The notes under the pieces were generated by a model. It was not told the origin of the DNA, did not search any database, and saw only the letters and a program-made list of their open reading frames with translations. The translations under genes were made by a program, and so were the position numbers. From NCBI RefSeq assembly GCF_964355755.1, contig NC_092674.1, forward strand, positions 2,790,001 to 2,854,000: 64,000 bases of DNA, in the 5' to 3' direction. Numbering within the stretch: the stretch's first letter is position 1; each line of letters begins with the position of its first letter. This document shows positions 15,101-63,032 of this stretch, piece after piece. Source of the DNA: Antedon mediterranea. Its lineage: Eukaryota; Animalia; Echinodermata.

Positions 15101-18100
15101 AGAAACTGATTTATCATTGTGTTGTTCTTCTAGTTTGTCTTTTTCAGTAAGAGATATCTGTAATTTTTTCTCTAGTACATGATTTTCCTCCTGGGTTTCC
15201 ACTAACTGTTTCTGTAAACTTTCCACCTCATTCTTAAATTCATCCGTTTGCGATTTTAGTTCCTTAATTTCTTCCTCAGTAGCAAAACCTTTTTGCATGC
15301 CATCCATATGAGCGTGCTTAATTATTTTTAACTGCTCAACAAGACGTTGCACTTGATCCTGACTCTTAGAAAGACTCCCAGTTAATTCTTCTTTTTCTTT
15401 TTGCAATGCATCCACAAGAGAAACCTTTTCATGCAATTTAGTATAGTTAGTATTCATACATTTTAACTCATCAACAAGTTTATCATATCCCACCTGTTTA
15501 TCTTCTGCATTCTTTACTTCTGTAGTTCTTCTGTCCAGTTCACTTTGTAGTTTTTCACAAATTTCTCTTTGACTTTGTAACTCAGTTGTCTTACTTTTAA
15601 GGTCATTTCTTAGCGTGGTGATTTCATTTTCAATTTTACTATCAGTAGTATCGTTGGATGCACAAACTTTTGTCAATTCTTTTTCTTCCAACATAATCTT
15701 TGACAGATTATCCTCAGCCTTTGTTATACTATTTAACGATTCTGTAAATGTCTTACTAACATCTAACAATCTGTTTTCTTTTTCTTGTAAATCTCTTTCC
15801 AATTGGTCAATATTTTGTCTTAATGCTGCAATCTCTTTATTCATTTCAGATTCTTTTTTCTTTTGTTCTTCTTTGAAATTTTCTAATTCTTGTTTTGATT
15901 CTGCCTTTTCTGACATCATGACATCAATCTGGCATTTCAATTTACTGTGTTCTTGAGATAATGTGTCATTATTTTGCTGCATGATGTCTAGTTGGTTTGC
16001 AAGTTCTTGTTTTTCATTGTCCATTGCTTCCAATTTTAGCTTCAGATCGGCGTCTTCACTACTTGTGGCATATTTTTCTGATCTTAACAAATCACAAACA
16101 TTTTGCAGTTCTTCACATTTTGTAACAAGCCTTTGGTTATCTTCCTTCGAAGATGTGAGTGAGCTTTCCAATCTATCTACTTTTTCTTCACAGTCAAGCC
16201 TTAATTTTTCTTCCTTTTTCCAATTTTCTTCAAATTCTGATAATTTTGAAGTAATCTTATCGACCCTATTTGAGAGATCCGTCTTTAACTTCAAAGTGTC
16301 TTCTAACTCTCTGTCCCGTTGATTTACTAAATTCTGCACTCTATCTCGTTCTTCCTTTATTGATTCTGCGCTTCCTTTGAGTTGTTGAACCTCTACAGAC
16401 ATGTCTACCAGCCTTTGTTCTAACTGCTTTTGTTCATCAACATTACTCTTAAGAGAATCTTGAAGAGTATTGCTCTCTTCCGTCACATCTTTTAACTGAA
16501 CATTAAGTCTTTCTAGTTCTTGCAACCCTGCTTTTAATCTCTGTGTAGCTGAATCAACTTCTGATTGAAGGTCAACTTTCTCTGTCTTTAATCCAGATAT
16601 GATGGTTTTTAGTTCTTCTGTGTTTGTAAATTCTGATGACTTCTGATGCTTTAATTCTTTCAAAGACAGCAAAGTTTGATCTCTTGCTTCTGTTAAAACC
16701 TTCACTTGCTCTTCGAGGTCCTAAAAAAAAACATTAAAAGAATTATTAAAACAACATAACTTGATTCATTTTAAATGAAATTATAAAAATATTATTCAAA
16801 AATTATGGCTTTTCATTTTCAACAGTTGTTCTCAAAATGTTTCTTGGTCATAGTATTATTGTTTGAAGGTTTGCATGGCGAAAACTCAAGTCTTTTTTTC
16901 TGCTACATACCGCAAACTGTATATTAACAATCAAAATATTCTAATCTACTATTCATTGATTTAGATAGTTTCTCAGGTTTCTGTAAAAGTACAATTTCCT
17001 TAAATTTTGTCTAGAATGATTTGAAAACAGCTTTTTAATCTTATTTTTACCTTGTTCTGCTTTGATGTCACTTGGTACTCATCCTGAAGACACTGGAATG
17101 TTGACGTCATCGTTTCTTGCTTCATTTCCATACATTCAAGCTTCTCAGACAATTCCTAGGTTTAAAAAAAAATTTACAAATCACAGAAACGGATCTGGCT
17201 AATTCCTTGATTTTCTCTCATTTAAAATAATCAATAATAATCAATAATAAATAAATAATAACAATAAATAATCTCTTGAACCTCCTGAACAATTTTAGGC
17301 CCATTCGTTAAATTTTAATTTTTTTAAATTGATGATATGCTATAATGAACTTCCTTCTGAGTATGCCAGTAAAATAAATTAGCAATGAATATATATATAT
17401 AATATAATATATTAAAACCTATAGTATCTGTATGATTAAAAAGTAAATTTCTAAAGCTCTGTTTACACTGTAAAACATTTTGTGACAAAAAAATGTGATG
17501 TGTCCAAATATGGAAGTGATATACACACATATGGTAGTAGACATTGTTTGATAGTGTAAACAGAGCTTTATACTGTACCTTAGTTTTCTTTAGTAGTGCA
17601 TTAGATTTGTCTTTTTCTTCTTTCAGATTCACTTCCACCTTGGATTTCTCTGCCACTGCTATATTTAAGGAATCCTCCATTGCCTATGAAGTGAACAATT
17701 TTAAATACTGTAGTGACTGAATGACAAATTAAGATATCACTCATTACTGACTGATGATAAGATACACATGTTGTCATTACATCAGTGCTGTTTACAGGCA
17801 TAGAGAAACTCTAAACCACCTGTAGATATTTAAATGAGGAGTTGCGGACACTTATATGTTATGGCGCATTGTTGCTGTCACAATCCATTGACCGATTGTG
17901 TCAAATAAATAAATGAAATGAATGAAAAAAAGCCGCCCACCCGAAATTTTAATTGGAATATTATGGATATGCGGACATTCAGGATCATCTAATTTGAGGC
18001 CTAGGCAGTGGAGTAGGAACAGATGTGAGTTACAATCCAGCTATGTAGCACTAGTATAATTGAACCTAGGCACTAGGTCAAGATTGAACCATGGACCTTG

Positions 18101-26994: not shown

Positions 26995-27139
26995 TTATAT
27001 CACCCCGATAAGGAATTATATCACCCCGATAGAGAATTATATCACCCTGATGGGGAGTTATCACCCCGATAGGTAATTATATAACCCCGATAGGGAATTA
27101 TATCACCCCAATAGGGAATTATATCACCCCAATAGGGAA
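26995..27139. repeat. 21-bp minisatellite (TTATATCACCCCRATAGGGAA x7) overlapping the stop codon of the IL1R-like gene
   Basis: Units start at 26995, 27016, 27037, 27058, 27077, 27098 and 27119. The last unit encodes FPIGVI* on the minus strand. Confidence 0.9.
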
Positions 27140-30100
27140 TTTCTGTTGGAATAACTCCTCACTTTGACAGGAATTTTCTTCCGAGAATGAGTAACTGCTT
27201 GCACTCTCCTTGGACACGGATCTCATAGGGCAGAGATATGTTTGAGAGTTGGTTGAAGTTGATCTATCAATGTATTTACTATTCTTATGATAGTCATGAG
27301 GACGAGCGTGTCGAGGAGTACGTCTGGTAGGCATTCTCACTTCTAGTTTCTTCCAGAAGGTTTTATTAGTGCCACTGGGTGACCACTTCAAGACCTCTCC
27401 AGCTTTCATAAGATGCTGGAGGGCTTCCTGTCTGTTCAGACTATCTGGTGAAATTGGTCTGAACATGACTGGGATGATGTTCTTCTTCAGCCTGTGTTTT
27501 TCTAAAGCTTTATTGAATTCTATTGAGCAATATTGCCGTTTAATGTAATCTGGAGACAGCACTAAAATACAACATCTGCTACAGTTCACTGCATTCACCG
27601 AAACTGTACAATGATCTGAAAATAAAGTTCATTCAAGTGCTATAATAATTGTATGTGGGAATCCATGGTACATATTACGTCAAAGGTCAAATGTTCCTGA
27701 GATCGTTACTTCCTGTATGATCTAAAACAATTAAGAAATACTTTACCTTCTCCAGGCAGAAAATTGATCTCATCAATACACACATTGTACGACAATTCTT
27801 CCACAAGAAACGGACGCAAGGTACAAATGACAAAATCCCGGTCTTCTTCGGAGTTACTATATGAAATAAACGCATCAAATTTGCTGCTTTCTACAAAATA
27901 TAAAAACGTTTAGCATAAATGTATTGGTCAGTCCAGCTTGATGATCCCAATAAGTTAGAATTTTAGATTATAAAACCTACGCATTAATAATATTAGCCTT
28001 GACGAATAAATAGTGTTTTCCGAAATCTTGGACATTTTCGGTTTGATTTTATAGCTTTTTTGATTTGTATCTCCATAGAATTGATACCAATATATCATGA
28101 TACCTCTGATACCAACAACATTGACATTTTCCATGAGTAATGTGCTTTTAGTTTTATTTTATAAAACAATATATATTTTAAACTACTCTAGACCTAGCCA
28201 AAATCCAATTCACCTAATAAGCTAGTTACAATTTATACCATACACTCACTCACCATCAGAAGAACATTTTTCTAATTTTCTCCTCTTAATGAACAGGTGT
28301 ATATCTGTTTTGAAAATCATGTAAATTAACGTGAACACAAACAAGATTACTAAGGTTGAACCCAAAGCAAGAGCAACCACTGTGCTCCCTTCATTTATAA
28401 CTTGTGGCAAAGGCTCCGTTTTATCTTCTGAAATAAAACAAGACGACTTATCAATAAATAAAAAGGTTTTGGCTGCTTCAGTTTAGTACAGTCCATCAAT
28501 TATTAGATTAGATAGCCTATTATCAATAATTTGTACAAAGGTCAAATTTCAAGAATTTCTTTGACAAGAAATTCAAAACACACTAAACCCTCCAATTTAT
28601 TAAAGATGTATTGTCCCCCAAAACATGAAAAATGAAGAATTATTAAATCAGGCTTTGAATAGGTTATTTAGTAGTTTTAATAGAGTAAATAGTCAAACAA
28701 ATCTTATATAATGACAAAATAAATGGTTAAATTCAACTTTAAATTACAGTTTCTTCAGATAAATTTTTTTTTCTCGATCCAATTTTAGGTCAAAGTGGAT
28801 TATGTGACATTAAAATGGCATATTCAACCAAAACAAAAATTGATTGAGACACTGACCAATGATCTTGGTTAAGTTGAGAACATGAACTAGACTTTCTTCT
28901 CTTATCAACTGTACATAGTACTGCCCAAATGCATCATTGGTTATGTTGTATATGTGGAGTGATGTTCTAATGTCGGTTTTATCTCTGAAAAAACACATTA
29001 TATAAATAATAGATAATAATCTGGTTTCAAAACAAATTCATCTACTGTAGATATATTTATTTTATTTTTACTTATTTATTCAACTTCTCACTGAGATGTA
29101 CAGTACATCCAAAGACACAGACATAACACACATCTAGTGAAGGATGGGACCAACAGGTGGTAAACACCTCTAAAACAGTCCAGCCCCAATTGCACAATGA
29201 GCCCAGTTATGATCAGTGGATGTGTGTGTGTGTATTAGTACACCGGGGTAACATCCTACTTGTTTCAAAAGATGTACCATGTTCTTTAAAGTGCACACGA
29301 GCTAGATGTGTACACTGCACCTTTATAGTCCTTATCCTAGAAGACTCGTTCTACCCCAGAACCATGGAGTGATTGAGCCTCAAACCCTTGCCAAAAAAAT
29401 GCACCCCTCTTTATACACAATGATGGATGCACCCCTGCTGCAACTAAAGTACTACAAAAAGTTTCAACTTAAAGTTTTAATACCATCAATCAAACTACAG
29501 TGCTAGTAATGTAATCAGTCTAAACATACCCTTCTGGGCACTCTTCTTTCTTTACAACAAAAGTGGTAAAATTGGTAAATGGAACAGTAATATCTTCATA
29601 ACCAAAAGTATAGTATTGTACCACTGGCGAGTCGAGACTATACCAAATGATGGTAGGGCAAAGTTCACTACGGCCAATGTAAAAGTGACATTCAAATGTG
29701 ACGTTGTCCCCAATTCTTGCAGATTTGTCAAGGCAGTCTTTTTCTTGCAACAATTCGATAGTTCTTGTTTGTTTTGCTGTTAATAAAGTTTAAATAAAAA
29801 TAATATAAAATCATTTTTAGTGAAATGTTTTCATAATCTGAAGAGTACTTGCCACAAGTTAATCAGCGTGGTGCAAATTAGTATTTTATTAAGGTTTCTG
29901 GATCATTTTCTTGTTGTGATTGGGATAGATGGTTGGTAAAATTAAATTGTAACAAGCACTTTTGAAATTTGTGAAACAGAATAATAGTGAATCGATTATA
30001 AATCCCTTTTACTCTTACACTGCCAAGCTAAAAAACACATTTCATATCATAAACTTTTACGCTGTTACGGCCACTAAATACGCATTTTAGCGCCCCCGGT

Positions 30101-38803: not shown

Positions 38804-41800
38804 TTAAATATCAGTGAAATTAGGCCATTCTCCTACTAGACTCTCCATTTGTAGTTGCTCTTCAAAATCATCCTCTAATTTTTGCAACTGTTGTTTGAAT
38901 TCATTTTCTTTACCAAGCTTTGTTTTCTGAAAAATAACAATTCGGTCTAAATTTATATTTAGGCCTATATTTCAGATTCATTTTATATCGTCATAATGTT
39001 AAACAACTTAATACAAAACATATGAAATTCATTTTCCCAGAGACATTTAAAATTACACCAACAAACTAACAAATAATTTTTAAGTTTAAAATATACAAAA
39101 TACAAATATGCCTGTTTAAAAATTAAATTATATTTTTGATAATGCAAGTTATCATTATCATTACAAATAGTTTATGATTAAACAATAGGCTACTAAACTA
39201 ACCTGATTTGTTTCCAGTTCTTTTCCTGTTGCCTCTTTCTCCTTCAGTAACTGGATATCATTTAATATCCTTAAAAGTCTTTTGGACTCTTTTTGATATT
39301 CCAATGCATTTATTTGCCTTACAACTTGCTTTCCACTTTGTGTCCTTCTGAAATAGGTCGGTGATTTCCATTCATCAGGTATGGATGTGGCAGAAGGTGG
39401 GGAAAGATGTGATGTTGTCCTTGGTTTCACATAATATGCCACTGGTCCTGACCAGCTAAATCCAATGTAAAAAACAACTTCTTCCCGACTTTTAATTGTC
39501 GTTATCATAGTACTTGAAGAGGGAATAGTTATGGGTATGGATTCATATGTATACTGGTGTTTATAATTAATGGTATTGTTACCTGATAAGATGCCACTAG
39601 CCATAAATAGATTCTCTTTGACATAGCCACTCTGCCAGACTTGATCTGCCTGCTTTTCCAATTTACTTTGATTTGACGATATTTTGCTGTGGTGAACCAA
39701 TGCTTTCATACCTTTTCCATTTCCAAGGAAAAAGTGAACGCATGGCCGACTTCTCAAATGACCTCGATAAGGTCTGTGATGTGACAAATGTCCATCTTCT
39801 TGTTTATCCCGTTTCTGGGATGCATTCCAACGTTCCTTAATTTCCTTTAGAGACTTTTTCATCAAGCTGTTGTCATACTCCTGTGCCGGCTGACCTCGTG
39901 GCCAAAGCAACATGAGAAGAAATAATGGTGGATATAAGCTAAATCTCTGTTCGTCACAGTCACGTCTATCAAGTTCCTTAGCAAGATCGATCATTTCTCT
40001 GGTAGACGGCAAATCATACCGATATTTACCCTTTACGTTTACTGTCGACAGAGCTAAGTTTGTGAGCATAATGATTTTTAAGTCAAAGGCAGAGTAAGGC
40101 TTGTTTTCCAACAGCAACTTCCGAATTTCAAGCAGATTTTCAACTTTTTCTTCTTTAACTAACTCAAACACGTTTCTGATACTGACGCCACCAAGCTTGC
40201 GTGCTTTTAGGCGACGCACTTCATCTGCTGTTTCCGCTGATACAGACAATTTATTGTCGTCAAAAGAACCAAAATGTATTTCCCACGAAACAAAACATTT
40301 AGGAAGTCTAGACTTTATATCTTCAAATTCAGATTGACAAAAGTGTGTGAAGTTTGACCACTCTTTTTGAATTGTAATGTAGTTGATCAGTTTATCAATA
40401 GCCTCGTGTACATTTCTCATCAAACCTTTCATTTTCTTGTGATGTTCAGCCCACTTATCTAACACATCCGGTTTGTAGTGTTTGTCAACCAAGTATCTTT
40501 GTAGAATGCTTCGACCATTAGGAGATTGTTTGAATACATCAAGGCAAGCAAGAACATCTAACATATTAAATGTAATATTGAGCTCACCAGAGAAACTTGA
40601 CATATTTGTTTTATCATCAATTTCTTGTGATTTATGGAAACTGTCTATGCCATTAAAAGCCAATGTCAGCAACCTGCAACTATCATCTATGCTCAGTCCC
40701 TCATGTTTTAATACGTATTTACGATAAAATGATCGAATCAGTTCCTGCTTGTAAATTTGTCCTTTTGTGTCCCAATCAAAACAGTTGTTTTTTCTCATAT
40801 CAATAGCCTTATCTATAAACTCTAGGGCTTTAGTATGATCTTCCATTACCAGGTTGTAGTATCTTGCGATTTGTTGAGCAATCATTGGCTCTTTGAGAGT
40901 ATTAAATCCCTGAATAAGTACCTCACATGCTTTTTCTTTGCCGACATCTTTTATTGCCAATATAAGTGCCGAAAACAATTGTTTTGTAGAAGGACTCGGT
41001 CCTGTCTGATTCCTCTTGATAAGAAGATCTTGTGTTCGTGCAGCAAGATACTCTCGGCTATATGCAACAGCTGACAATAACTCGGACTCTAAATAAGTTG
41101 TCACTAATGAGCTCAGAGATTGCAAATTGGAGTGTTTTATGATAGCATCGGCTACTATTGGGTGAACTATTTTTAATCCTTGTACACTTCCTATGTCATA
41201 TGTCAACTGTACTCATCAGAACACGACAGCCTTCTGGCATAGTGTGTTCCCATGAACATCTTCGTTTCTTTTTTGCAGAAAAAGCAAACCCAATTAATTC
41301 GTCACAGCAAGAGACAGGAATTGCAGAATCTGGTTCAAATTTGCCGAATAACGAACAGAATTTTACCAATTCAAGTTCACGGGGACGGTGTTCTTCGAGA
41401 TCATCAATAATCCTTCCGACTGTACTTTGCACATAGTCAGATTTAAAATCTTCTTTCATTACCATAAAAGCAAGAAGGCGATCCGGCTTAAAATCTTCAT
41501 CACTTAGCATTTTGGTTTCAAGCTGATCATGCTTTGTCTGAAACCATTGTTTCTCTCTCTTATTCAATGATTGCCCTAACAATAAAGCATTGCAATCCTG
41601 AAGTAACGATTTGTCTTCTTTAATATCTCTTTGCGACATATATCTTCTACAACTGAGAATAACAAACGTACACCCTACAATGTGTCTTGTACTGTACTCT
41701 AATGAAATAACCATAGCTGTCAAGTCATTGTAAGGAAGGTTGTCACTAGCAATAACAAGAGGCAAACGTTCTTTTTGCAAATTGCAATCGCGTTCACCAT

Positions 41801-44800
41801 AGTTACACATTTCTAATATTTGATCTTTTGTCTGCTCAGTAATTTTGTTTAGAAGGACACATCTGTACTTCTTTCGAAACTCCCATAAGACATGTTTTAC
41901 AATCGTGCTTCCGCCAGCACCAGGTAGGTGAAACAGATGAAACCAACGAAATATTGCTTGGTTAAGCACTTTTTTCTGATGTGTTTGGTTAATCATGTTA
42001 TCAATTGCGTCTACTATTCTATTCTTGCCATCACGTTCACACACATGGTCATAGCCCATATCAGTGAACTTAAAATTCCAAAAGGAGAGTTTTTCTCCTC
42101 TGTAAAACTCTAACTCTGTATCTTTGCAGAAAGTATAGAAGTCTGGATTCTCTTCATTCATATCTGTGTTGTCACATTCATTATATGCAACAACAATAAA
42201 GTCCGTCCATTTCGAATCTTTCCATAATTGACATCCTTTGCCATTAACTGTTGGAAGAATGTAACTTGATTTTACATTTACACCTTGCATTTGTAAAATT
42301 ATATCATTCAAGCTTTTCAATGGAAGAACAGCTACTCTATCTTGTATTTCCTCAGGATTGCAGCATTTTTCGACGAGCTTACACCATTCCTTATAAACTC
42401 GGGAACTTTCGCAAATAAAAACCATATTTCTAATCCCAAAGTTTGTGTAAAACTTACGATATGCTTCACTCAGTACTTCAATGTTGTTAGGCAGCAAGAT
42501 AAAAATAACAAGACCTGTATCCTGTTGAATAACACTAATATTAGAAAAGAATTCAATAGCCTTATCCATATATTGGCTGCGTTCCTTAATCCACGTCATT
42601 CTGTCCATGGCATCGTCATCTTCCGTTCCTGTACGCCCGTTACAAAAGATCCATGCTGGAACTTCTCCGTAATTGATGTGAGATGGTGAAGTTACTGTGG
42701 CTAAATCATTTATGTCATAAAGATTTACCTTCTGTTTCAATCTCATTACCTTACATATGCCATTTTTATTTGAATTTTCATCAAAATCAAAGACAGCCTT
42801 CCATTTTACTTTACTAATAAACTCAAAAGTTTCATCAATGTTTTCAATGTCTGTACCAGGTACATTAACTACCAAGATTGCATTATAAACCAAATCAAAT
42901 GTTTTTTTCGATTGTGAGTCTCCAAAAAGCAATTCCCGAACCTTGTATTCGACTTCAGAAGCACATGATACATCGTGATCTGCCTTGGAACGTTTCTTCT
43001 TCCTTTTCTTGCTTGATTTACTTGCTTTACATTTTGGAATATTTTCCACTGCACCAATACTAGGCTGCAGGTCTTGTTTCGTTGATTTAATTAATGTATC
43101 AGTTTTAACAGAATCTGATGATGTAAGGTTTGCAGCTGACTTCTCAAGAATGTTTATCTGTTTGCTTCCTTTATCCTCATTTATCAGTCATATGGCCGAG
43201 CGGTTAAGGCAGGGGCGCCGTTTATCGTACCTAAAGAGCCAACAACAACATCGGCAAGGGTTCGAGGCCGACTCGCTCCTAGTTCTGGTGGTGGAACAAG
43301 TCTTCTCGGATAAGGACTATAAACCGTAGGTCCAGTGTACACAGTTATAACCTGTGTGTACTTTAAAGAACCCAGTTCATTATTCGAAAAAGAGTAGGGG
43401 GTTACCCCGGTGAACTGGTTCACACAATAGCGTCTGTATCAGGGGGATTACCACCTATCTGATAGGACAGTGATTAATTCACTATTGGTAATCCTTGGCC
43501 ACAGTGCCTAAAGACATAAAATAAAATAAAAAATTACACTTTGGAATGTGTATATCCATGCTCTTCTTCACTTGTTTAGGGTTTGTTTTAATATTTTCTA
43601 CTACTTTAGTTTTCTTTAATCCCGTTAAAGGTTCCAGTTTTTCTGAATCAGTTCTATATGTGAGTGTGACAGAATCGTCGGAACTTGTTATCCGTGTGTC
43701 TGAACTCTCCTTAACACATTTAGAACTTACTCCTGTAATTCCAATATCATCCACTCCTTCCTGTTCGATATTTTGAAACGTATGTGAAGATGAGGAAACT
43801 TCAGTTACACCAGGTTCAGGTTGCATTTCTCCGTCATTGAATCCCGTTCTTTCAGATTTCATTGATTTCGTTGCAGCAGTTGCTGAATTGATTTCAGCAT
43901 GTGTATTCACTTCTATAGGCTTTTTAATTTTTGCTGTTGGAGATTTTACATTTGTGTGAAAATCATACAAAATGACATCTGATTCTGAACTTTTCTCTAA
44001 ATATTTAGGCTTTACTTCAAAAGAAGCTGCGTCTAAAAATGTACTGCTTTCTCTGATTTCAGTATCAATGGACATTTTCTGCATATGCAAAACCAGCATA
44101 AGTGGACCAACTGGAAGATTGAAATCTTCTATAAAGTGCTCTTCTCGATATTGCAAAAATTTGAAACCATTCATATCCAAATGTGTAAATTTGTCTGCAT
44201 GTATAGGAGATAACCCTGCTCGTAATAATAATTTAGACACTGTTGTTGCACGACAGTCATCAGTTATAGGTTCCCAATTATCCTTTTGTCCTTCCAACAC
44301 CTCTTTTCTTTTCTTTTCTAGACTGTATTGAATCATGCGCAAGTCAGTCTTCTTAATTTCAAACTCTTTGAATATCTTGTCATGCTTATCTATAAGCAGA
44401 TTCTTTCCAATAAATTCCTGCTCATAAACCTGATTTGCAAGTTCTTTCAAACGAAGGTCCACTGAAAGCCATTCCCTCACCTCATTCCTATCCCACTCAG
44501 TTATTATCTTCTGGCTTTGGCCTTTAAACAAAAATAAAAGTTCACATACTATCTAAAAGTAATTGTTTAATGTTATATATAATGCCAGACTGAGGATACT
44601 ATACTTACCAACTTCTTTTAGTTTTGATAAAACTGCTGAGTACATGTTCTCGTCAATACGCGATGACAAAGTTTTGCAGAAGTGTTCAACTTCACTTTTT
44701 TCGACAAAGATCCTGGCTAGCTCTTGAATGAATTTTCCATTTTTGTGATTTTCCATCAGATTTTCTAAGGCATACGTATCATGAACTGCCACAATAATCT

Positions 44801-45374
44801 CTAACGATCCGGATGCTATACTTCGTAAGGCGAGACCCTTTCTTCGCATCAGAGCTTCAAGTTCAGACAGCTTCTCTAAAAATTCCTGATTAGTTTCTTC
44901 CCTGCATTTACCATCCAAGTTGTCTTCATAATATAAACCAAGGAGTAAAATCGCTCTCTGGACCGATTTCTGTTTACTCTCTCCTTGAACACTTTCATGG
45001 TTACCACGTTGTTCCTGTGTGTTTTCCTCGCTTCTTTTATGGATGTTGACTGTAATATCTATTTGTAACAAAATGAATATGGACACAATACAAAATAAGA
45101 GGTGCCATTTCGTTATATAGATTTGGTATGAAAATAAAACAAATTTAATTAATAATATATAATTTAATAGTTTATAACCCCAAATAAAAGCCAGTAGAAA
45201 TGCAATATGATTGGTCCTACATCTACTGTAAAAAATAATGTTACCAAAACAATTGTTCAAAACAATGTTGTTGTGTCCATCACATTGTATCTTTTCTTCT
45301 GATATGGTAAATTGTTTACCATCCTTAGTAACCACACGTTCTTCAGGTGAACTGCTGATATCTTGATCTGACAT
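38804..45374 (-). pseudogene. SAMD9-like STAND NTPase, copy B, disrupted (SINE insertion plus frameshift)
   Basis: Same 4-exon layout as copy A: 45245-45374, 44609-45058, 39203-44521, 38804-38926. Exon 3 is interrupted by an antisense SINE (about 43187-43533) that supplies a stop at 43482. A 2-bp loss at about 41200 shifts the frame (VDI* versus VNINELG in copy A). All SAMD9 motifs are otherwise retained (KWKAVFDFD, WIFCNGR, HLPGAGGST, FYIGFSWSGPVAY). Confidence 0.82.
43187..43533 (+). mobile_element. Deu/Nin-core-like SINE variant inserted in the coding exon of SAMD9-like copy B
   Basis: TGGCCGAGCGGTTAAG head, GGTTCGAGGCC B box, shared core, TAAAATAAAATAAAAAA tail. It is absent from copy A exon 3. 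A 3'-end fragment of the same family lies at about 53940-54010. Confidence 0.85.
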
Positions 45375-45414
45375 GGTGTTCACACTGATCTAGGCGTAAA
45401 CACACTAGGACCTA

Positions 45415-46386
45415 TAGTCAGGTGGCTTAACAACAAACAAGGCCAACAGCCATTAAGTCGCGTGCTACAATGCATAGTGATACCGGACCGACAGACAGAC
45501 CGACGGACAGACCGACAGACAGACAGACAGACCGACCGACCGACATAGTGAACTATACTGACCGAAATTACTGAACATGTTTAAAAATGTTGAAATGTTT
45601 AAAAACATTTATATTTTTTTAATTTACTTTTGACGTGCTCGTATAACGTAATTTCGAGTTGAAAAGTAAGTCAAGAAAACAGAAATCGGGCAAAAAAAAT
45701 GCGCAATAACATTTAACGCGCAGTGCGCGCGCAAAAATATGCGCACTCATGACAATTTTGTAAATGCTTAAAATTGCCTGAAACGTACTCTTATTTCATC
45801 GAAAATAAATTTTGAAAATTTTAAGCGCGCATACGCATGCGTTACATGCGCTACGCACGTAATTGTAATTGCCCTGAAATTTATGAGTACCAAATTTTAT
45901 TTAATTGTGATTCATGGTTGTGAAGATATGATTACAAACGTGATTTCGTTAAATCGTGCGTAGACCGCGTAATTTTTTATTGCGCACCGTGAAAACATAA
46001 CCACATTGATTCCTGGCCATAAGGAATATACTGTGAAAAATTGACCTAGCTAGATTAAACTGATATCAAGATAAGGTCAGAAAGCGATAAAACGCATAGT
46101 GATACCGGACCGACAGACAGACCGACAGACAGACAGACAGACAGACAGACCGACCAACCGACCGACATAGTGAACTATAGAGTCGCTTCCACGCGACTAA
46201 AAATAAGGAAATCGTTACACGGTGGACAAAAGCGCCAAATTGCATTTTGGCCGCCATCTTGGAAAATCGGAAGCTGCTCGGGTGGCTCCTAGGCAAAAAT
46301 CAATTAGTACGTCTGAAAGAAGCCTCATGCAAAATTTGGTGCTTTTGTCCAACGTGTAACGTTTTAGTCGCTAAGCCACCTGACTA
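45415..46386. mobile_element. Academ-like MITE containing a nested Helentron/HINE-like element (about 45436-46204, minus strand)
   Basis: Outer TIR TAGTCAGGTGGCTTA / TAAGCCACCTGACTA with 3-bp TSD CTA. The inner element reads TTTTTAGTCGCGTG..GCGACTCTA, has (GTCY)n microsatellites and ends CACGCGACTTA plus a GC hairpin plus TTGTT. A short relative lies at 62582-62687. Confidence 0.72.
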
Positions 46387-47379
46387 CTAGTAGTAAACTA
46401 TCATCCAAAATATCCTAAAATTAACCATGTCAACACTGGGTTGGAGAAAGGCTGCAATATTGGACTATATGGATGTGTAATCACAATCAGACAGACTTCT
46501 TCATAATCAGTACTTAATGGTTAGAAACAGGACAACTTCGCCTATAAACCCAGTAGCCTACCGTTATAATTACTCATTCCTGAAAACTACTTCATCATTC
46601 AACATTTTATGTTATGGACCCAGCATATGCTATAACGGGCCTCTGGTTTGTTTGGAGTAAATTAACACGTATAGGATGATATAAAATAAATAAATGAAAT
46701 CTTTAGCAATTTAATAGGTTCAACCTACCGAATTCAGTTCTATAACCATGCCAGTATCATACCTATAGGTAAAGTTAGGGTAATCGTTTCGCCTATATAC
46801 CTCAGTACCCACTGCAAAACATGTATTATAATAATATAATAATATGGTCTATTATTGTTATTGCGCTCCGACCAAGTATCGATTGTCTACACCTATGATA
46901 CGTGTTACATTTGAAATTCCAATTTCTATTATCATCAGTGTACGGTACTAACAAAGTCGGTTGATCAATAATTATTATACAGTCAAAATGTCAATATGAC
47001 CTAAGCAGTAAATAATACAAGCAAAACAGAAAGAGTTTTTATTATTGAGTGGTGCCGGAGCTTTTTCTTTAAACAATTCAATTCATAATACAAAAATCAA
47101 TGTGTTAATATGTAAACAAATGAACAAATCTCTTTTAAAAAGTGTATGTAAACAGATGATGAAAACAAATATAATGTTAATATAATACTATGTATAGTGT
47201 ATTGAAATTAAAATGAAAAATATATGTAAAGAGAACATATGTATGGAAATAAAAGTAGAATGAACCCACATAAGATTAAAAAAAACCAAATTCAATTCAT
47301 GTTGTCCAGATATACAAATGTAAATGGAAGTTTACTCTCATTTTGAGAATAACAACAGTATAAAAAGTAGTAGATCTAT

Positions 47380-47759
47380 GTATCTTGAAAATAGTCTTTT
47401 TTCCAAACCAATAATTAGTAAAAACTAACCTTGACAAATAATAACGATCTATCATCAAACAGACTGACCTCTAGAGGGCCTATTCTGTTTAATGACAGGG
47501 TCATACACGTGACTGAGTTGGTGGGTGCCCTCGTCTCTGTTGATGATTTGGTTTCCTCGTCTGCGGATCCAGATGACCCTGTCATTAAACAGAATAGGCC
47601 CTCTAGAGGTCAGTCTGTTTGATGATAGATCGTCATTATTTCTGAAGAAGCTGTCCGATCAGGACAGCGAAACTGTCAAGGTTAGTTTTTACTAATTATA
47701 TTGGTTTGGAAAAAAGAATATTTTCAAGATACTACAAACCAGATGAACATTTTCAATCA
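47380..47759 (+). mobile_element. Penelope-like element 3' fragment with 5' inverted copy
   Basis: Flanked by the 12-bp direct repeat TAGTAGATCTAT (47368-47379, 47760-47771). Segment 47380-47503 is the inverted copy of 47572-47731. Contains a hammerhead core. Confidence 0.65.
47636..47684 (+). ncRNA. Minimal type-I hammerhead ribozyme motif (Penelope-type)
   Basis: CUGAAGA (47642-47648), stem II GCUGUCC/GGACAGC with GAUCA loop, GAAAC, then UGUC as the cleavage triplet context. Stems I and III are very short. Confidence 0.6.
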
Positions 47760-48760: not shown

Positions 48761-51700
48761 CTAGATCTCTTCCATATCTATCTGCTTTTTGAAATCATCT
48801 TCTAATTTTTTCATTTGCTGTTTGAAATCATGTTCTCTTCTCAGCTTTGCTTCCTGAAAATGAGAAAAAGATATCAAAATAGTTTTTCCAATTAGGGCCT
48901 ATGTTCTAAATGAAGAGGCCAAATCTTTGTAAAGAAATGCTACTTATTTGCTACCGTATTCAAAATGAAATCTAGAAGCATGTTGGTAACTGGAAACTAA
49001 TAACGATACAGTTATAAATCACATAAAGATGCTCATTAATAACAAACCTGATTTTGTTCCAGTTTTTTTCCTTGTCTAACCTTCATCTTAAGTGCTTCAA
49101 TTTCAATTACTTTCTTGTTAAGATCCTTGCGTTTCTTATGATATTCATCTACACTTATTTGGTGTACAACTTGCTTCTCTGTTCTTGAAAAAGCAGAGGG
49201 TCTCCATTCATCATGAGTCTGTCTGTATGTCATAGGCTCTGGTAAATGTGATGCTGCCTTTGGTTTTACGTAATATGCCACTGGTCCTCCCCAGCTAAAG
49301 CCAATGTAAAACACAACTTCTTCCCGACTTGCAAATGTTATGTTACTTGATGAAGCAAGTGGAAATTGAATGGATTCATCCATATAATCGTGTTTAAATA
49401 TTATGTTGTTAGTTTCTGATAAGGTACCTTCAACCTTTAACAAATTCTCTTTGACGTAAGCACTATGCCAGACTTGATCCTTTTCCAATCTAATTTGGGA
49501 TGATGATATTTTGGTTTGGTGTACCAGTGCTCTAAGACCCTTTCCATTTCCAAGGAAAAAGTGAACCAATGGCCTTTTACGAATTCGCTGACTTTTCAAA
49601 TGAGGTCCGTAAACTAGATGTCCATCTTCTTGTTTATCCTGTCTCAGTAACAAATTCCAGCGTCGTCGGGTTTCAAGTAGAGATTTCTTCATCAGACTGT
49701 TATCATATTCGTCTGCAGGTTGACCTCGTGGCCAAAGCAGCATAAGCAGATATACTGGTGCAAATAAAGTAAAGCTTCCTTCTTGTCGGTCACATTGATA
49801 AAATTCCTTAGCAAGGTCTATCATTTCTGTGACAGACGGTAAACTGTACTGACTTTTCTTCACATTCGTTATTGTTGATAACGCTAAGTTGGTCTGTATT
49901 ATTATTTTCAAATCGAATGCAGAGTAAGGGTTATTTTCTAACAGTAACTTTCTAATCTCTAACAATTTCTCTGTTTCCATCTCGAACAGCTTTCTGCCAC
50001 TGGTGCCAATAAGCTTTCGCGCTTTTAAACGACGTAGGTCATTTGCTGTTTCTACTGATACCTTGATTTCCTTATCAAGATCAATACAACCAAAATGTGT
50101 GTCCCATGAGCATAAGTAAGAAGCAATTAGCCTTTGTAGCTTGAAAGATTCATCAAGTTTTGTAAAGTTAGACCACTCCTTTTGGTATGTTAAATGATTG
50201 TTCATTGTATCAATAGCCTTGTGAACATTTCTCATCAAACCTTTCATTTTCATATGATGTTCAGCCCATTTGGCTAACACATCTGGTTTATAATCCTTGT
50301 CAACCAAGTAACGCTGTAAAATATTACGACCAGCAGGAGTTTGTTTAAATACATCAAGGCAGGCAAGAACATCTAACATCTTGAATGTAATATCAACTTC
50401 GCCAGAAAAAGTTGACATGCTTTTGTTATCATCAATTTCTTGAGATTTATGAAAAGTATCTATGCCATTAAAAGCTAGTTGCAAAAGTTTACAACTATCA
50501 TCTATGCCAAGTAACTCATTTTTTACAACATATTTGTTATAGAACGCTTTTATCAGTTCGTTTTTATAGATCTGTCCCTTTGTATCCAAAAGAAAAGAGT
50601 TGTTCCCTCTCATGCCAATAGCTATCTCTATATACTCTAACGCTTTGGAGTGATCTTCTATTATCATACTGTAGTACCTTGCAACTTGTTGAGCAATCAT
50701 GGGATCTTGTAGGATATGGAATCCTTCAATAAGCACATAACATGCATATTCCTTGTCAACATCTTTTATTGCCAATATAAGAGCAGAAAAGGGTTGCTTT
50801 ACAAAGGAAAGAAACCCTGTTTGATTTCTCTTTATAAGGAGATCATGTGTTTGTGCAGCAAGATATTTTCGACTATATGATTTTGCAGTGAGTAATTTGG
50901 ACTTCAAAAAATGTGTCACTAAGGAACTCAGAGATACTGAGTTTGCATCTACACGCAGGATAAAATCAGCTACAATTGGATGAACAATCTTTAATCCTTG
51001 TACAGCTCCCAGCTCATTTATGTTAACTGTACTCATCAGAAGAGAACAGCCGTCTGATATATTGTGTTCCCATGGACATTCTCGTCCTTTCTTTACAGAA
51101 AAGGCAAACCCAATGAACTCATCACAGCATGGGATCGGAATAGCGGAATCACGTTCAAACTTGCTGAATAATGAACAAAATCTGACTAATTCAAATTCTT
51201 GTGGATGCTGTTCTTTAAGATCATCAAGAACTCTGCCGACTGTATGCTCTACGTACTCAGATTGAAAGTCTTCCTTCATCACCATAAAAGCAAGAAGACG
51301 ATCCGGCTTAAAATCTTTGTCATCATCACTTTTCATTCTTCTTTCAAGCTGATCATGCTTTGCCTGAAACCATTTTTTTTCTTTGTCACTCAGTGAGTGC
51401 TCTAAAAAGAATGCTTTCTCTTTGTTACCATATTTATCTTCTTTGATATCACCTTTTGACATATATCTTTTACAATTCAAAATTATACACGTACGTCCTG
51501 GAATGTGTTTGGTACTGTATTCTAATGAAACAACCATGGCTGTCAAATCATCATAGAAAATATTATCGCTAACAATAACAAGAGGTAAACAAACTCTTTT
51601 ACCATTGTAATCTCGTTCTCCATAGTTCCACATGTCTAATATTTGTGCTTCGGTCTGATCAGTAATCTTATTTAAAAGAATACATCTGTATCTTTGCCGA

Positions 51701-54700
51701 AACTCCCATAGAATATGCTTGACAACAGTACTTCCACCAGCTCCAGGTTGGTGAAACAAGTGAAACCAATGAAAAACTGCTTGGCCAAGTGTTTTGACCG
51801 GCTGAGTTGGTTGTTTAATTTCGTTCTCAATTGCCTCTACCATGCTATATTTGACATCTCGTTGGCATACATGATCGAATTTGAAATTCCAAAATGAGAG
51901 TTTTTCCCCTCTATAAAAATTCAACTCGGTATCTTTACAGAATGTTTCGAAGTCCGGATGTTCTTTGTTCATATCTGTGTTGTCACATTCGTTGTATGCA
52001 ATCACCGATAAATCAACCCATTTAGATTTGTCTTTTTCCAACAGGTTACATCTTTTCCCATTAACTGTTGGCAACATGTAATCCGATTTCAAATTTACAC
52101 CTTGCATTCGTAAGATTATGTCATTGAAAATGTGGAATGGAACAACGACTAATCTTTCTTCTAGCTTTTCTTGATGACAGTACCGTCTCACTTGTTTACA
52201 CCATTGATCGAAAACCTGTCTCTGTTCACATATAAAGATGATACGATGGATGCCAAAGTCGGTATAGAACTTACGGAATGCTTCACTCAATACTTCAATG
52301 TTGTTAGGCAACAAGATAAAAATTACAAGACCTGAATCCTGTCGAATAATACAAGTATTTGAAAAGAATTCAACAGCCTTATCCATAGCTTGACTGCGTT
52401 TCTCGATCCAGGACATTCTGTCCATTTGTGAAACATCAATATCTGATCGCCCATTACAAAATACCCATGTTGGAACTTCTGCATAATTTATTTCAGATGG
52501 TGAAGTTACCTTGGCTATGTCTGTTATGCCGTAAAGATTTACCTCCTGTTTTGATCTCATTGACTTGCAGATGCCACTTTTGTTCGAATTAGCATCAAAA
52601 TCAAAGACAGCCTTCCATTTTACTTTTGATATAAACTCAAAAGTTTTATCGACATTTGGAATTTTCGTACCAGGTACATCAATTACAAGGATCGCATCAT
52701 AAACTATATCAAATGTAGTTTTTAATTGTGAGTCTTCAAGCAGCAATTCCCGAATTTTGTGTTCAGCTTCAGAATAATCTGATATATCCGTTGTTGTGAC
52801 ACGTTTCTTCTTCTTTTTCTTGCTCGATTTATTTTCTTTAAACACATGTTTGTCACGTGTGTCGTATTCTTGTTTATTGCTCTGTATACTTTTTGGGACT
52901 TTCGCTATTGCACCAATACCAGTTTGCAGCTCTTTTCTATCAGTTCCAAGTTGTGTTGATTTGATTGTTTTGTCAGTTGCAACTGAATACAAAAGGGAAT
53001 TCCCTGTTTTACCACCTAATCCTGATTGAGATTCTCTCTCTTCTCCATCACCTCTATTATCACAGCCTTCAGATTGCGAGTCAATGTTTGAAGCAGAATT
53101 ATCGGCAAAGGTCGGGCGTGTGCCCAGACTTTCCTTGAAACATTTAGACTTCAACTCTGTATTTTCAATCTTCTGCTCTTCTTTTTGCTGAGTGTTTATT
53201 TCAATGTTGTTAATACTTTCTTCTGAAGTAGCATCTTCTTTTTTAATTCCTGCTGTTGGAGATTTGACGTTTGTAGAACTGTCAGAAATGGCTATATCTG
53301 TATTTGGACTTGGACCAAACTCCTCCACATCTTTCTCATTTTGAATGTTAGACTTACTGACAGCGCCATGTAATACTTTACTGCTTTCTCTAATTTCTGC
53401 ATCACTGGACAATGTCTGGGGAACTTGTGATATGTTCTGCATATGTAAAACCAACAATAGTGGTCCACTTGTCAGATTAAAATCTTCCACAAAGTGCTCT
53501 TCTCGATATTTCAAAAACTTAACACCAGTCATATCCATGTTTGCAAATTTTTCTGCGTGAATCGGAGGTAATCCTGCCTGAAATAATAATTCAGATACTC
53601 TTGTTGCACTACAGTCATTAGTTACAGTTTTCCAACTATCCTCTTTTCCTTCCGGTAAATCTTTCCTTTTCTCTTCTAGACTGTATTGAATCATGCGCAA
53701 GTCGGTCTTTTTAAGTTTAAACTCCTTGAATATCTTGTCGTGCTTATCTATAAGCAGATTCTGTCCAATATATTCCTGCTCATAAACCTGATTTGCGATT
53801 TCTTCTTTCAGACAAAGTTCCATTGAGAGCCATTCTCTCACTCGGTTCCTATCCCACTCGGATATTAACTGATGGCTTTGACCTTAAATGATAAAGTGTT
53901 AAAATGATATCTAAATTGAACACAACTATATGATGGCCATTGATTAATTTACCATTAGTAATTCTTGGCCACATGTGCCTAAATACATTTTTAAAAAATA
54001 AATAAATAAATTGAACCCAACAAATGTAAATGTATCTTTATTATATTACTGCATGAACAGCTGATAAGTTGAGTTACATGCACTTATAATACTGAACAGG
54101 AAATATAAGATAATTAATTGTCTACCCATGAAATGGCGTTGTGAACTCAATATATGAATTGAACCAAATGATCCAATTAAACGATTAAATGATTCAGTAA
54201 ATTTAAAAACAGTCATATGTACTTAAATTACCATAGAAAGCAGCATTCCTGATGAATACTTACCAACTGGTTTTAGTTTTGATAAAACTGCTGTGTACAT
54301 GTTCTCGTCAATGTTCGATGACCAACTTCTGCAAAAGCGTTCAACTTTGCTTTCTGTGGCGAAGATTTTCGCAAGCTCTAGAATAACTTTTCCACTTCTG
54401 TGATTTTCCATCAGTTTTTCTAAGGCATACGTGTCATGAACTGCCACAGTGATCTCCAACGATCCTGATCTTATACTTTGTAAATCGAGGCCCATTTTTC
54501 GCATCATAGCGTTAAGTTCAGAGATCTTCTCTAAAAGTACTTGCCTAGATTCTTCATCGCATTGACCGTCCAAATTCTCTGAGTAAAACCAAATAGTACG
54601 TAGTAACTCTTTCTCGACCGTTTTTGGTTTATGTTGCTCTTGGTTGTGTTCAGGGTTACGTTGTTTGTCCTTATTTTCAAGTTGTTTGTTTTTGTTGTTG

Positions 54701-55214
54701 ATGTTGATTGTAATATCTATTTAAATCAAAATTAAAACGGCTAAAACATAAATAAAACTGAAAACAGGCGGTGTCTCTTTTTTTATATAAAGCATTTACG
54801 TAAGCAGCAACCTGATTATTTACGACCGATGTTGCCGATGAGTGAAAGAGATTAGGTCACAAAAGTCACTGAGATGCCCACAGCATATTCAAAGTAAAGT
54901 AGAATAAGCCTTTCACTAATGTTATATATGTTTAATTTTTTTTAACCAAATGTTTTAAATATTTTTATATCGTAGGCCTACTATGAAATACACTGAAAAA
55001 AAATTCCTATTTACGAAATAAAGTGAAATGGAAATGTAAATTGTATTGATCTAACGTAAAAGGTAGCATTCTTACTACAATTGTTACAATTTTTAAAAAC
55101 ATTGTTGTTGTTTCCTTCAAGACATATCTCTAGTGGTGAAATCGTCACTTTATTACCAACTTTAGTATAATGAACCACAGGTTCGGGTGGACTGCTGCCA
55201 TCTTGATCTGACAT
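48761..55214 (-). CDS. SAMD9: SAMD9/SAMD9L-family STAND NTPase, copy A, intact, about 1839 aa, atypical architecture (RHIM-like, TRADD-N-like, 2xSAM, linker, SIR2-like, P-loop, TPR, OB, eIF2A-like tail)
   Basis: Exons 55076-55214, 54264-54716, 49048-53882, 48761-48853 join in frame (5520 nt). SAMD9-specific motifs: KWKAVFDFD, PTWVFCNGR, NECDNT, FYRGEKLSFWNF, HLFHQPGAGGST (Lys-less Walker A as in SAMD9), ILWEFRQRYRC, AFMVMKEDF, IVHPIVA, QQVARYY, DTKGQIYK, LLWP, HFFLGNGKG, FYIGFSWGGPVAY. The family call is secure; one-to-one orthology is not claimed. Confidence 0.92.
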
Positions 55215-55893: not shown

Positions 55894-56728
55894 CAAAGAA
55901 TATATCACAAGAATGAGTAATCCGCGATTTTCCCTGTAACAGTAATATTGTCCATGTGGTAGGGCGCCGTCATAAGTGTGGATGTATCTGGGATGTATAC
56001 AACTTTTTGTGAAGGTTTTACTATATCAAAGGCTGGACCACCGGAGTATTTTCCGATGATAAAAATGTTATCAACTACATGCCAACATCATGTTAAATAC
56101 TATTTAGATATTTATTTGTTCGTTTTATGCAATTTATTTAGTAAAAACTGCCGTATAAACAGTTTGCTTTATCAACCGGGCGCTACGATAGCGTGACCGG
56201 GCGTGTTGGTGTTTACGCGTTTTCACGAAGGATAGTTTAATAACATTCCTATATTTAACTTGTTTCTGGTAAAACAAATAAATGTTAATGACATTTAACA
56301 TTTTCTCCTTTTAATAACATGTGTTTTATACTAATTTATATCATAAAAACAATACTTAATTTACCGGGCGTAGAGTAGTACACGGCAATGGTAAAGAATA
56401 GGCCGTGCTGAGTAATATTCGTTGATTTTTGGTGTTGCTGTGTTAGGCCTTTTTTGTGAACTAACTTAGCATGTTAGTAAATAATTGTCTGTAAAAGTGA
56501 ATAAACACTAGTTTGTTAATAAATATGTATTATAAAATAGTTTACAATTGCAAAAACTACCATCATAATTCTATTTAATGTGACATGTATCATGTCTATT
56601 AAATCAAGTCTTATTTAGTATGTATACATCCGCCCTTATAAGGGCGGGCATCACTCACTGGAGCTCTCTGTTACAAATTTCTCATGCAAAAATCGCGGAA
56701 TACTCATTCTTGTGATATATATTCTTTG
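55894..56728. mobile_element. Non-autonomous P-element-like transposon
   Basis: About 38-bp TIRs CAAAGAATATATCACAAGAATGAGTAATCCGCGATTTT and 7-bp TSD GTTATTG (55887-55893, 56729-56735). Confidence 0.75.
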
Positions 56729-61222: not shown

Positions 61223-63032
61223 ATGACGGCACATCGTCATAGCAACTATGTTGAAGTACTGTTTGTGTTGCTAGTTGTCTTAGTAGTAACAGTTGTTGCA
61301 GATGACGTTTGTGATAGGACAACACCAATAGGTAACTTACTAAATCTTGTTTCCCACTAGGACGCAACGCAAGGACGTTAGCGCAACGCAAGTGATTTTA
61401 CCAGTGAAGAGTGACATATTTGTTTAAACTCTTCCCTGATTTGACTAATCATGACGCAATGGATTATTTGAACTGCGCTTATGATTAGTCAACTCGCTTG
61501 CGTTGCGCTTACGTGGTGCGTTACGTCCTAGTGAGAACCTAGCTTTACTGGGATATAGCATTGATGTGACTATTGATAGTGGAAAAAATAGGATTTCCGT
61601 CGATGGGGTGGACAATGAACGAGTAGCCCTAAGTGATGGTGCCGGGACGTAATTGACCGGTGACGGGTATTGATAAGTGGCAAAAATCAACCTGACAATG
61701 AAATGGCGTCGAGTGACAAAAATGACAATAACATTCGAATTCAACAAATTGCATTATTTAATAAAATTAACCAATTTGACGACGGCGCTGATATCATGAC
61801 GATGGCTACAGCAGAACCGTACACTTATGTGTAGGTCTCACGTAATGCGACATGACGTCATTCCACACTCATAGATACAGGGCACCATGACCCCTTTCCC
61901 AGTCAGTCTTCGCTGTTGATGACGGACGGAGACAAATGAATGCAATGACGAAGAAAAATACCGTTAAGGCCAATTTACACAGACGAGCGGCAACGGTAAT
62001 AAAATATATAATCTATGTTATTCCTTATGACCATTTACACACAACGCTTAGGATAGATACATCATTATTCTACGTGGGACAAGCTACGCGGTTCCGCTTA
62101 CCGTTACCGGTCGCCTGTATAAATTGGCCTTTAGTGAAATAATACTGATTCTTATTTCTCAAGGTAACAAGTTATCATTCTACGCAACACAGAAGAGTAC
62201 ATATGTTGAAATAAGAAAGTACTTCTACATTAAATGTTGTGCACAGTGGTATGATACCATTGAATGGTACAAGGATGTGATCAGTCCATCAACCCGTATC
62301 GGTCAAAGGTCAATACCTAGTGGCTGCAATCATTGTGGTGTCCAGCACGCCTTTACGTTCAAAGAGAATGGACAAGTGTTGAAAGTGAGAGAAAGTGTTA
62401 AAGACTACCATACGGGAACTTATATTTGTGTTATAAGAAATGGGACGGTTAATGAGACTTTCAAACAAGATGTAACAGTACAACGTAAGTCATCAGAATT
62501 GGTATTTTTTTTATTCTATTCAAAAGGTTAACCCATATTTAAAATGCATTTTCATTTATGCAGAGAATATATAAATAAATAAACAAGGTCATATACATGG
62601 CTGCAGTCGCGTGCTCAAGTTAGTGTTTACCACCGACCAACCGACCGACATGAGCTGTTGTAGAGTCGCATTGCACGCGACTAAAAACAATATTGAACAG
62701 AAAAATGTAGACGTGGCGCGTGTAAATGTTCATTTAGTTCATCCTTCCTATCTTTAATTTAATCAATGTGCTTTCGTCCATTTAGCTATAAATAATTTAC
62801 AATCATCTACAAACCTGACACTCGCTAACGACGAATGTGAACTGAACGTGTATGCGAATATTGGTGACAACACAACAATTTGCTGCACGTTCTCACAGTT
62901 GACGCTGGATTTTGACATACGATGGGAAAGAACGATAAATGGTACAGAATTCATCCATCTAATCAAATCCGAAGGAACTAAAAAGGAGTTTGAATATACG
63001 ACATTTGTTGCGTATACAACTTACTTTAAATC
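61223..63032 (+). CDS. Second IL-1R-like Ig receptor paralogue, 3'-partial
   Basis: Exons: 61223-61331 (MTAHRHSNYVEVLFVLLVVLVVTVVADDVCD, signal peptide), 62164-62484 (Ig1: IKCCAQWYDTIEWY..TGTYICVIRN), 62786-63032 (first half of Ig2: ANIGDNTTICC..IRW). Phases match the 27-33 kb gene and the third exon has the same 247-nt length. TM and TIR are not seen within the window. Confidence 0.82.
62582..62687 (-). mobile_element. Short Helentron/HINE-like element
   Basis: Same termini (CACGCGACTAAAAA, AGTCGCGTG, AACAAGG) and (GACC)n core as the element at 45436-46204. Confidence 0.6.

Follow-up and report, generated by a model that had tools for sequence, protein, structure and literature searches.

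Two tandem SAMD9-like genes and their C-terminal extensions

The window analysed here, a stretch of 64,000 nucleotides from the crinoid Antedon mediterranea, carries two tandem SAMD9-like genes on its minus strand, hereafter copy A and copy B. Copy A corresponds to the RefSeq protein XP_071949915.1 of the same species, and the splice in the RefSeq model is identical to ours. The N-terminal part of its big exon (52701..53883, minus strand) encodes SAM-like repeats and a low-complexity linker, the repeats being recognised by eye as a pattern that gave no SAM domain match in Pfam or PDB. It is followed by the SAMD9 core (49273..52700, minus strand), which comprises the SIR2-like, STAND NTPase and TPR regions and an OB fold ending in GPVAY. 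The core (ORF residues 395-1539, SIR2-like through OB fold) matched the human SAMD9 chains at E 6e-88, and a glycine-type Walker A motif, HQPGAGGST, could be read in crinoid SAMD9-like sequence.

Upstream of the big exon lie an exon encoding a weakly TRADD-like N-terminal domain (54259..54714, minus strand; Pfam E 0.019, below the cut-off) and a probable first coding exon with an N-rich motif (55080..55214, minus strand), which bears a weak likeness to the Anneissia N-terminus and is missing from the RefSeq model. A probable first exon with such a motif was also noted in copy B (45250-45374, minus strand). We take the N-rich motif of both first exons to resemble a RHIM, a reading for which Pfam gave no match. 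Together with the weak TRADD-N, a RHIM-like first exon may provide the AlbA-less clade (see below) with its signalling end.

Past GPVAY, copy A continues through a poorly conserved linker (49150..49272, minus strand; 41% identity to copy B) into the first half of a helical module, a basic helix and a G-x-x-L-E-x-N-Q loop that close the big exon (49048..49149, minus strand). A phase-0 GT-AG intron of 194 nt (48854..49047, minus strand) separates this half from the last coding exon, which runs to the stop and encodes a second helix with a lysine in register with K567 of human eIF2A (48761..48853, minus strand), the numbering taking the 603-aa 8dys chain to carry a tag of 18 residues. Copy B is built in the same way on the same strand, with the first half of the module at 39203..39301, a phase-0 GT-AG intron of 276 nt at 38927..39202 and the last coding exon at 38804..38926. 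Both peptides quoted in the earlier note occur on the minus strand of the window, and its statements that both copies run about 100 residues past the OB fold and that a phase-0 intron follows NQ in each of them were borne out. The tails beyond GPVAY measure 105 aa in copy A and 117 aa in copy B; in human SAMD9 the match reaches residue 1431-1432, with the chain itself ending at 1434. The remainder of copy B (39302..45374, minus strand) is likewise SAMD9-like; its reading frame shifts near 41197, and a high-copy repeat lies at ~43188-43480. The same frameshift was seen in three sets of contigs from one sample, and in this individual copy B is probably a pseudogene.

Homology of the tail to the eIF2A C domain

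When 177,635 PDB sequences were searched with a profile built from three crinoid tails, human eIF2A came out at E=3e-9, with the runner-up at 0.75. The match spans chain residues 549-600 and takes in the last ~52 residues of the crinoid tail. Used by itself, the copy A module's first half had human eIF2A as its sole PDB match (E 0.058), and a profile of eight non-crinoid SAMD9-like C-termini likewise led to human eIF2A (E=1.4e-4). In the reverse direction, a profile built from nine Pfam-confirmed eIF2A tails, with eIF2A sequences only, scored copy A at 41.3, copy B at 28.8 and Anneissia at 39.4 bits. None of 1000 shuffles of each sequence matched these scores, reversed tails stayed below 6 bits, and the 930-aa coiled coil of the window itself (exon at 13928-16720, minus strand) received -0.6 bits. 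The eIF2A tails had been collected by a motif-built pattern; the shuffle test was therefore redone without the eight pattern columns, upon which 1, 0 and 0 of 10,000 shuffles attained the score (copy A, copy B and Anneissia, respectively). The motif columns of alignment A2 are circular, since the pattern used for the metagenome scan was derived from the motif itself, and a further comparison of the crinoid tail with the eIF2A C-terminal module, giving 98.2%, is partly circular as well.

At 33-50% identity to eIF2A, the crinoid tails keep the G-x-x-L-E-x-N-Q loop and the lysine at NQ+3, both of which are also kept in coral and hemichordates, and the K567-equivalent lysine is present in 10 of 11 spliced tails. 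Neither the crinoid nor the eIF2A profile found a sequence match to caprin at E<=10. None of the 37 pattern matches that the eIF2A-tail alignment gave in viral contigs was confirmed as a relative.

A generic K/E-rich coiled coil could in principle have come to resemble the eIF2A tail by convergence. This would agree with the AlphaFold models of the crinoid tail (three sequences), which show a single long helix and no hairpin, with the lack of any matching Pfam family, and with the ESM Atlas search, which returned unnamed clusters alone (scores 0.77-0.79). On the other hand, the shuffle, reversal and coiled-coil controls, the single clear PDB match and the shared intron position (see below) all argue against convergence, which we regard as extremely unlikely and already largely refuted by the PDB match and the profile controls. 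The claim that the tail is an eIF2A-like C-terminal module thus withstood the comparison, the profile match being significant and going beyond a generic coiled coil. Overall, these comparisons support homology between the crinoid tail and the C domain of eIF2A.

Use of the last exon

In run X1, one contig of 2152 nt has position 48852 joined to 49047, and the piece left out is exactly 194 nt long with CT..AC ends. No joint of this kind was found in DNA run X3. That X1 represents RNA is a guess, and the exact skipping of the intron matches what processed RNA yields. With X1 so understood, the contig is spliced into the last exon, which argues against the possibility, raised in the earlier note, that this exon is not used in transcripts. 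The contig differs from copy A in 3 of 293 letters over the last exon and UTR (about 99% alike) and in 76 of ~850 letters over the TPR/OB part of the big exon (about 91% alike), and therefore comes from a divergent allele or a close paralogue. Among the changes listed, two in helix 1 are silent and many in the TPR/OB part are replacements. Set against copy A over 49047-49900, the contig has the look of a mosaic allele or paralogue.

In a second contig (716 nt), a related last exon is joined to upstream sequence of its own; a DNA contig connects a similar last exon to an OB-fold end. These two contigs likely represent a third paralogue, which would bring the tail-bearing paralogues in A. mediterranea to at least three. 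For copy B, an X1 contig ends at 38930, as expected of a spliced piece, and a spliced X1 contig from its 5' part joins 44345-44520 to 44608-44904 despite the frameshift and the repeat.

Distribution and age of the tail

A search with the OB fold plus half of the module against 1.84 billion representatives gave 86 matches, 85 of them anchored; tail-bearing proteins are over-represented among these, because the query itself contained the tail. Past the OB fold, 59 of the 85 proteins extend by at least 60 residues, 8 by 30-59 and 18 by fewer than 30. With the eIF2A-only profile, 14 of the 85 tails reached at least 20 bits and 19 scored above the best reversed tail (10.2), while 40 of the 59 long tails lay at or below the reversed control. 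Species names were looked up for 20 of the 85. Strong tails belong to Ptychodera flava (two proteins), Glandiceps, Saccoglossus and a cluster containing the coral Pocillopora verrucosa, weak ones (8-9 bits) to the molluscs Mytilus, Pecten, Liolophura and Saccostrea, and starfish tails, which came from a word-indexed search, range from 1.8 to 8.7 bits. The starfish and mollusc tails are of similar length and show a similar helical charge pattern, although their eIF2A motif has faded. Branchiostoma (two proteins) and Erpetoichthys have tails of 7-8 residues, and human SAMD9 likewise stops at the OB fold. A tail confined to crinoids, as suggested by word-indexed searches (3, 3 and 8 proteins), was overturned by the search of 1.84 billion representatives.

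In three 90% clusters, including that of the coral, spliced and read-through members diverge immediately after NQ, the read-through form continuing with V. This divergence point implies an intron common to coral and crinoid relatives. A midpoint-rooted tree of 54 protein cores, from a sample rich in tail-bearing proteins, places tails on its coral, mollusc and hemichordate branches, with short ends dispersed over the tree. One early gain followed by several losses would fit this pattern. Its presence in coral and acorn worms and absence from the chordates examined make the tail a likely old part of the sensor. A recent graft at the level of crinoids or a single lineage does not agree with a module that hemichordates and coral have in common, intron included.

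The AlbA tRNase domain is distributed differently. The crinoid copies gave no Pfam or PDB match to AlbA, and the crinoids scored -4 (copy A) and 0 bits with a SAMD9-type AlbA profile, versus 161-183 bits for Saccoglossus, Glandiceps and Pocillopora; the tail and the AlbA domain are found together in the coral and two hemichordate proteins. Crinoids, starfish, Ptychodera protein P0012 and further proteins form an AlbA-less clade (support 1.0; -5 to 1 bits). Its members are P0001-P0007, P0012, P0016-P0020, P0030, P0034 and P0039, and their N-termini vary, with ubiquitin-like, kinase and SAM domains among them.

Scattered absence of the tail (18 of the 85 matches), fading of its motif in many proteins and the broken state of copy B would all be in keeping with a decaying relic of little function. 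We consider such decay very unlikely. The low dN/dS of the last exon between copies A and B (0.19, 30 codons) stands against introns that align poorly with each other; the core gives about 0.2 and helix 1 gives 0.93, on thin data in which copy B is the broken partner. The splice has also been retained and used, and the motif persists across distant phyla. Helix 1 of copy B is devoid of net positive charge.

Intron sharing and origin of the module

Among the metagenome matches listed (118 loci), the module reaches at least 15 bits in 45, and the 73 below this score were taken as chance. A GT directly follows NQ, and the frame is left there, in 9 of these 45 module loci (among the matches listed); the next exon was found in 7 of the 9 and an eIF2A propeller within the locus in 3. 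Other intron-bearing loci, without the NQ intron, accounted for 5 of the 15 read. The comparison with eIF2A genes proposed in the earlier note thus came out in its favour, in that some of them do carry a phase-0 intron after NQ. Seven of the nine eIF2A-type loci with the NQ intron have a second phase-0 intron ~22 codons before it; none of the crinoid copies shows that second intron.

The exon shuffling suggested at the same time fared less well. Helix 1 lies inside the big exon, no intron marks the start of the module and the upstream eIF2A intron is missing; since only the internal NQ intron is shared with the donor type, strict exon shuffling does not fit. What would fit the sequences is capture, at the DNA level, of an eIF2A gene's 3' end, accompanied by the loss of one intron; a parallel gain of the NQ intron, at a CAG site, is another possibility.

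The module is not confined to eIF2A and SAMD9-like proteins. It was also found in ankyrin-PDZ-U-box proteins, where a single ORF encodes it between the ankyrin part and the PDZ and U-box domains (L023:292-2364 and L024:126-2183, minus), and behind a Tpt1 domain. The eIF2A 3' end of locus L011 (2375-2765) shares 90.6% DNA identity over 395 nt with a Tpt1/KptA ORF (L080:504-898), and across parts of Tpt1/KptA and another ORF (L080, L067 and L021) the shared stretches measure 395, 375 and 180 nt at 91-93%. We read these stretches as recent copies of the eIF2A tail on other genes, misassembly being possible. The eIF2A tail is a mobile module, put on unrelated genes more than once.

Predicted fold and possible roles of the tail

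AlphaFold models of eIF2A tails show a helix-loop-helix. The best fold match of this hairpin was the N-lobe of Caprin-2 HR1 (PDB 8k9c; rmsd 0.7, TM 0.84, E 0.17, Z 8.5), with a Z value in the range common among helical pairs, and Foldseek returned no match to the hairpin model at E<=0.001. Caprin-2 HR1 is reported to serve dimerisation, with a basic cluster just downstream involved in lipid binding (PMC11480233).

These observations bear on the possibility that the eIF2A-derived tail is now a purely structural helix pair, acting in self-association or autoinhibition, e.g. over the OB/SIR2 interface. The Caprin-2 HR1 N-lobe sits in a dimer interface, similarly long and similarly charged helical tails persist in starfish and molluscs after the motif has faded, and the SAMD9 OB fold is described as a swinging, regulatory part that contacts the NBD and SIR2 (PMC13600222). 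A structural role of this kind nevertheless leaves the retention of the G-x-x-L-E-x-N-Q loop and the NQ+3 lysine in crinoids, coral and hemichordates unexplained, and human SAMD9 is reported to be autoinhibited without any such tail (PMC13600222). We regard it as unlikely, though still the strongest of the rival explanations.

The reading that we favour, at close to an even chance, is that of an ancient captured tail that would dock the SAMD9-like STAND sensor on structured RNA or the 40S subunit and would be coupled to the OB fold. The C domain of eIF2A has been reported to bind HCV IRES RNA in vitro with a requirement for K567 (PMC6208778), and the eIF2A-like C-terminus of human PYM to associate with 40S; the same source reports no ribosome binding for Drosophila PYM (PMC4072592). 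According to another report (10.1101/2022.11.18.517125), isolated eIF2A 533-585 is not inhibitory for translation, fusion of residues 529-556 to the propeller restores inhibition, and attempts to assign 40S binding to one end of eIF2A or the other gave no clear answer. A role of eIF2A on HCV and Sindbis RNA is disputed (PMC7139343). As for the receptor, the OB fold is reported to be required for SAMD9 oligomerisation and dispensable for DNA binding (PMC12015307), and the signals activating SAMD9 are described as unknown, the C-terminal end of the STAND protein being its sensor (PMC13245274).

In such a scheme the tail would have been taken, likely early in animal evolution, from the 3' end of the eIF2A gene, and its basic helical hairpin would likely anchor the sensor to 40S subunits or structured RNA. 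The tail may keep the tRNase close to the translation machinery wherever AlbA is present. For the crinoid clade, which lacks AlbA, it could serve as an input at the regulatory C-terminus, tugging the OB fold that governs opening and oligomerisation, with the output passing through the N-terminal adaptor-like domains. The tail was likely lost in chordate SAMD9 and in several further lineages.

A copy of the eIF2A/PYM surface at this position might alternatively be an integrated decoy, engaged by a pathogen protein or a viral IRES-like RNA and thereby switching the STAND protein on. Its placement at the C-terminal sensor end of STAND (PMC13245274), the in vitro binding of a viral IRES by the eIF2A C domain (PMC6208778), and the occurrence of at least three tail-bearing paralogues in this species, in a family whose N-terminal domains vary, are compatible with a decoy. 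We nonetheless hold a decoy to be distinctly unlikely. A single old module with a single intron, extending from coral to crinoids, is unlike the integrated domains of plant NLRs, which are patchy and recent, and the two listed helix 1 changes of the X1 contig are silent against many replacements in TPR/OB. To our knowledge, no pathogen factor attacks the C-terminal surface of eIF2A or PYM.

Returning to docking, a bolder extension, which we offer tentatively as rather unlikely, would see the ancestral animal SAMD9 as a ribosome- or IRES-docked sentinel, whose eIF2A RNA-binding tail was gained before the coral-bilaterian split, sensed viral take-over of the 40S subunit and aimed the tRNase; the tail would then have been kept in the tRNase-less clade of crinoids, starfish and hemichordates and lost by chordates. 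If true, this extension would tell what class of ligand a STAND family without a known activator responds to.

Relation to known systems

The SAMD9 architecture was reportedly set out by Mekhedov in 2017 as AlbA-SIR2-STAND-TPR-OB. The AlbA_2 tRNase is described as core to the family and lost in some members, and the architecture as closing at the OB fold, in a paper where a term search finds no mention of eIF2A, PYM or a coiled coil (PMC5445408). Terms for an eIF2A-like tail are likewise absent from the main text of PMC12680541, and no description of such a tail on SAMD9 was found in the openly accessible literature searched, which included 10.1101/2025.05.22.655611. Compared with human SAMD9/SAMD9L (PDB 9zjr, 37id), the crinoid copies have the SIR2-like, STAND, TPR and OB core in common (E 6e-88), add 105-117 C-terminal residues with the eIF2A-C module and its intron, and show a weak TRADD-N-like N-terminus and no detected AlbA tRNase.

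With the C domain of eIF2A (human 502-585; helical part 533-585) the crinoid tail shares the 52-residue match, the loop motif, the K567 equivalent and, for some eIF2A genes, the phase-0 intron after NQ. Unlike eIF2A, it comes without propeller or M domain, has ~12 extra residues beyond helix 2, lacks the upstream intron and sits on an immune STAND protein. PYM1 provides a precedent for an eIF2A-like C-terminal module on another protein, tied to 40S in human cells, whereas the likeness of the Caprin-2 HR1 N-lobe (PDB 8k9c) is one of fold to the eIF2A hairpin model, with no sequence match. Plant NLRs with integrated domains likewise have a piece of a host protein at the sensor end of a STAND receptor; in contrast to these, the SAMD9-like tail is old and stable, and no pathogen ligand of it is known.

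The tail extends the published architecture of the SAMD9 family beyond the OB fold. SAMD9/9L shut off translation both during antiviral defence and in marrow-failure disease of humans; an old C-terminal domain derived from a translation factor would link the family anatomically to the ribosome or structured RNA. As a piece of 50-70 residues with a one-residue control, the tail is directly assayable.

Genomic neighbourhood

Elsewhere in the window, a TIR-domain exon (27119-27628, minus strand; E 3e-8) suggests an immune-gene neighbourhood, and a weak Ig-domain exon lies at 62052-62531 on the plus strand. High-copy repeats with GACA microsatellites occupy 45400-46350, 47100-47750 and 55900-56500, between and beside the two SAMD9-like genes.
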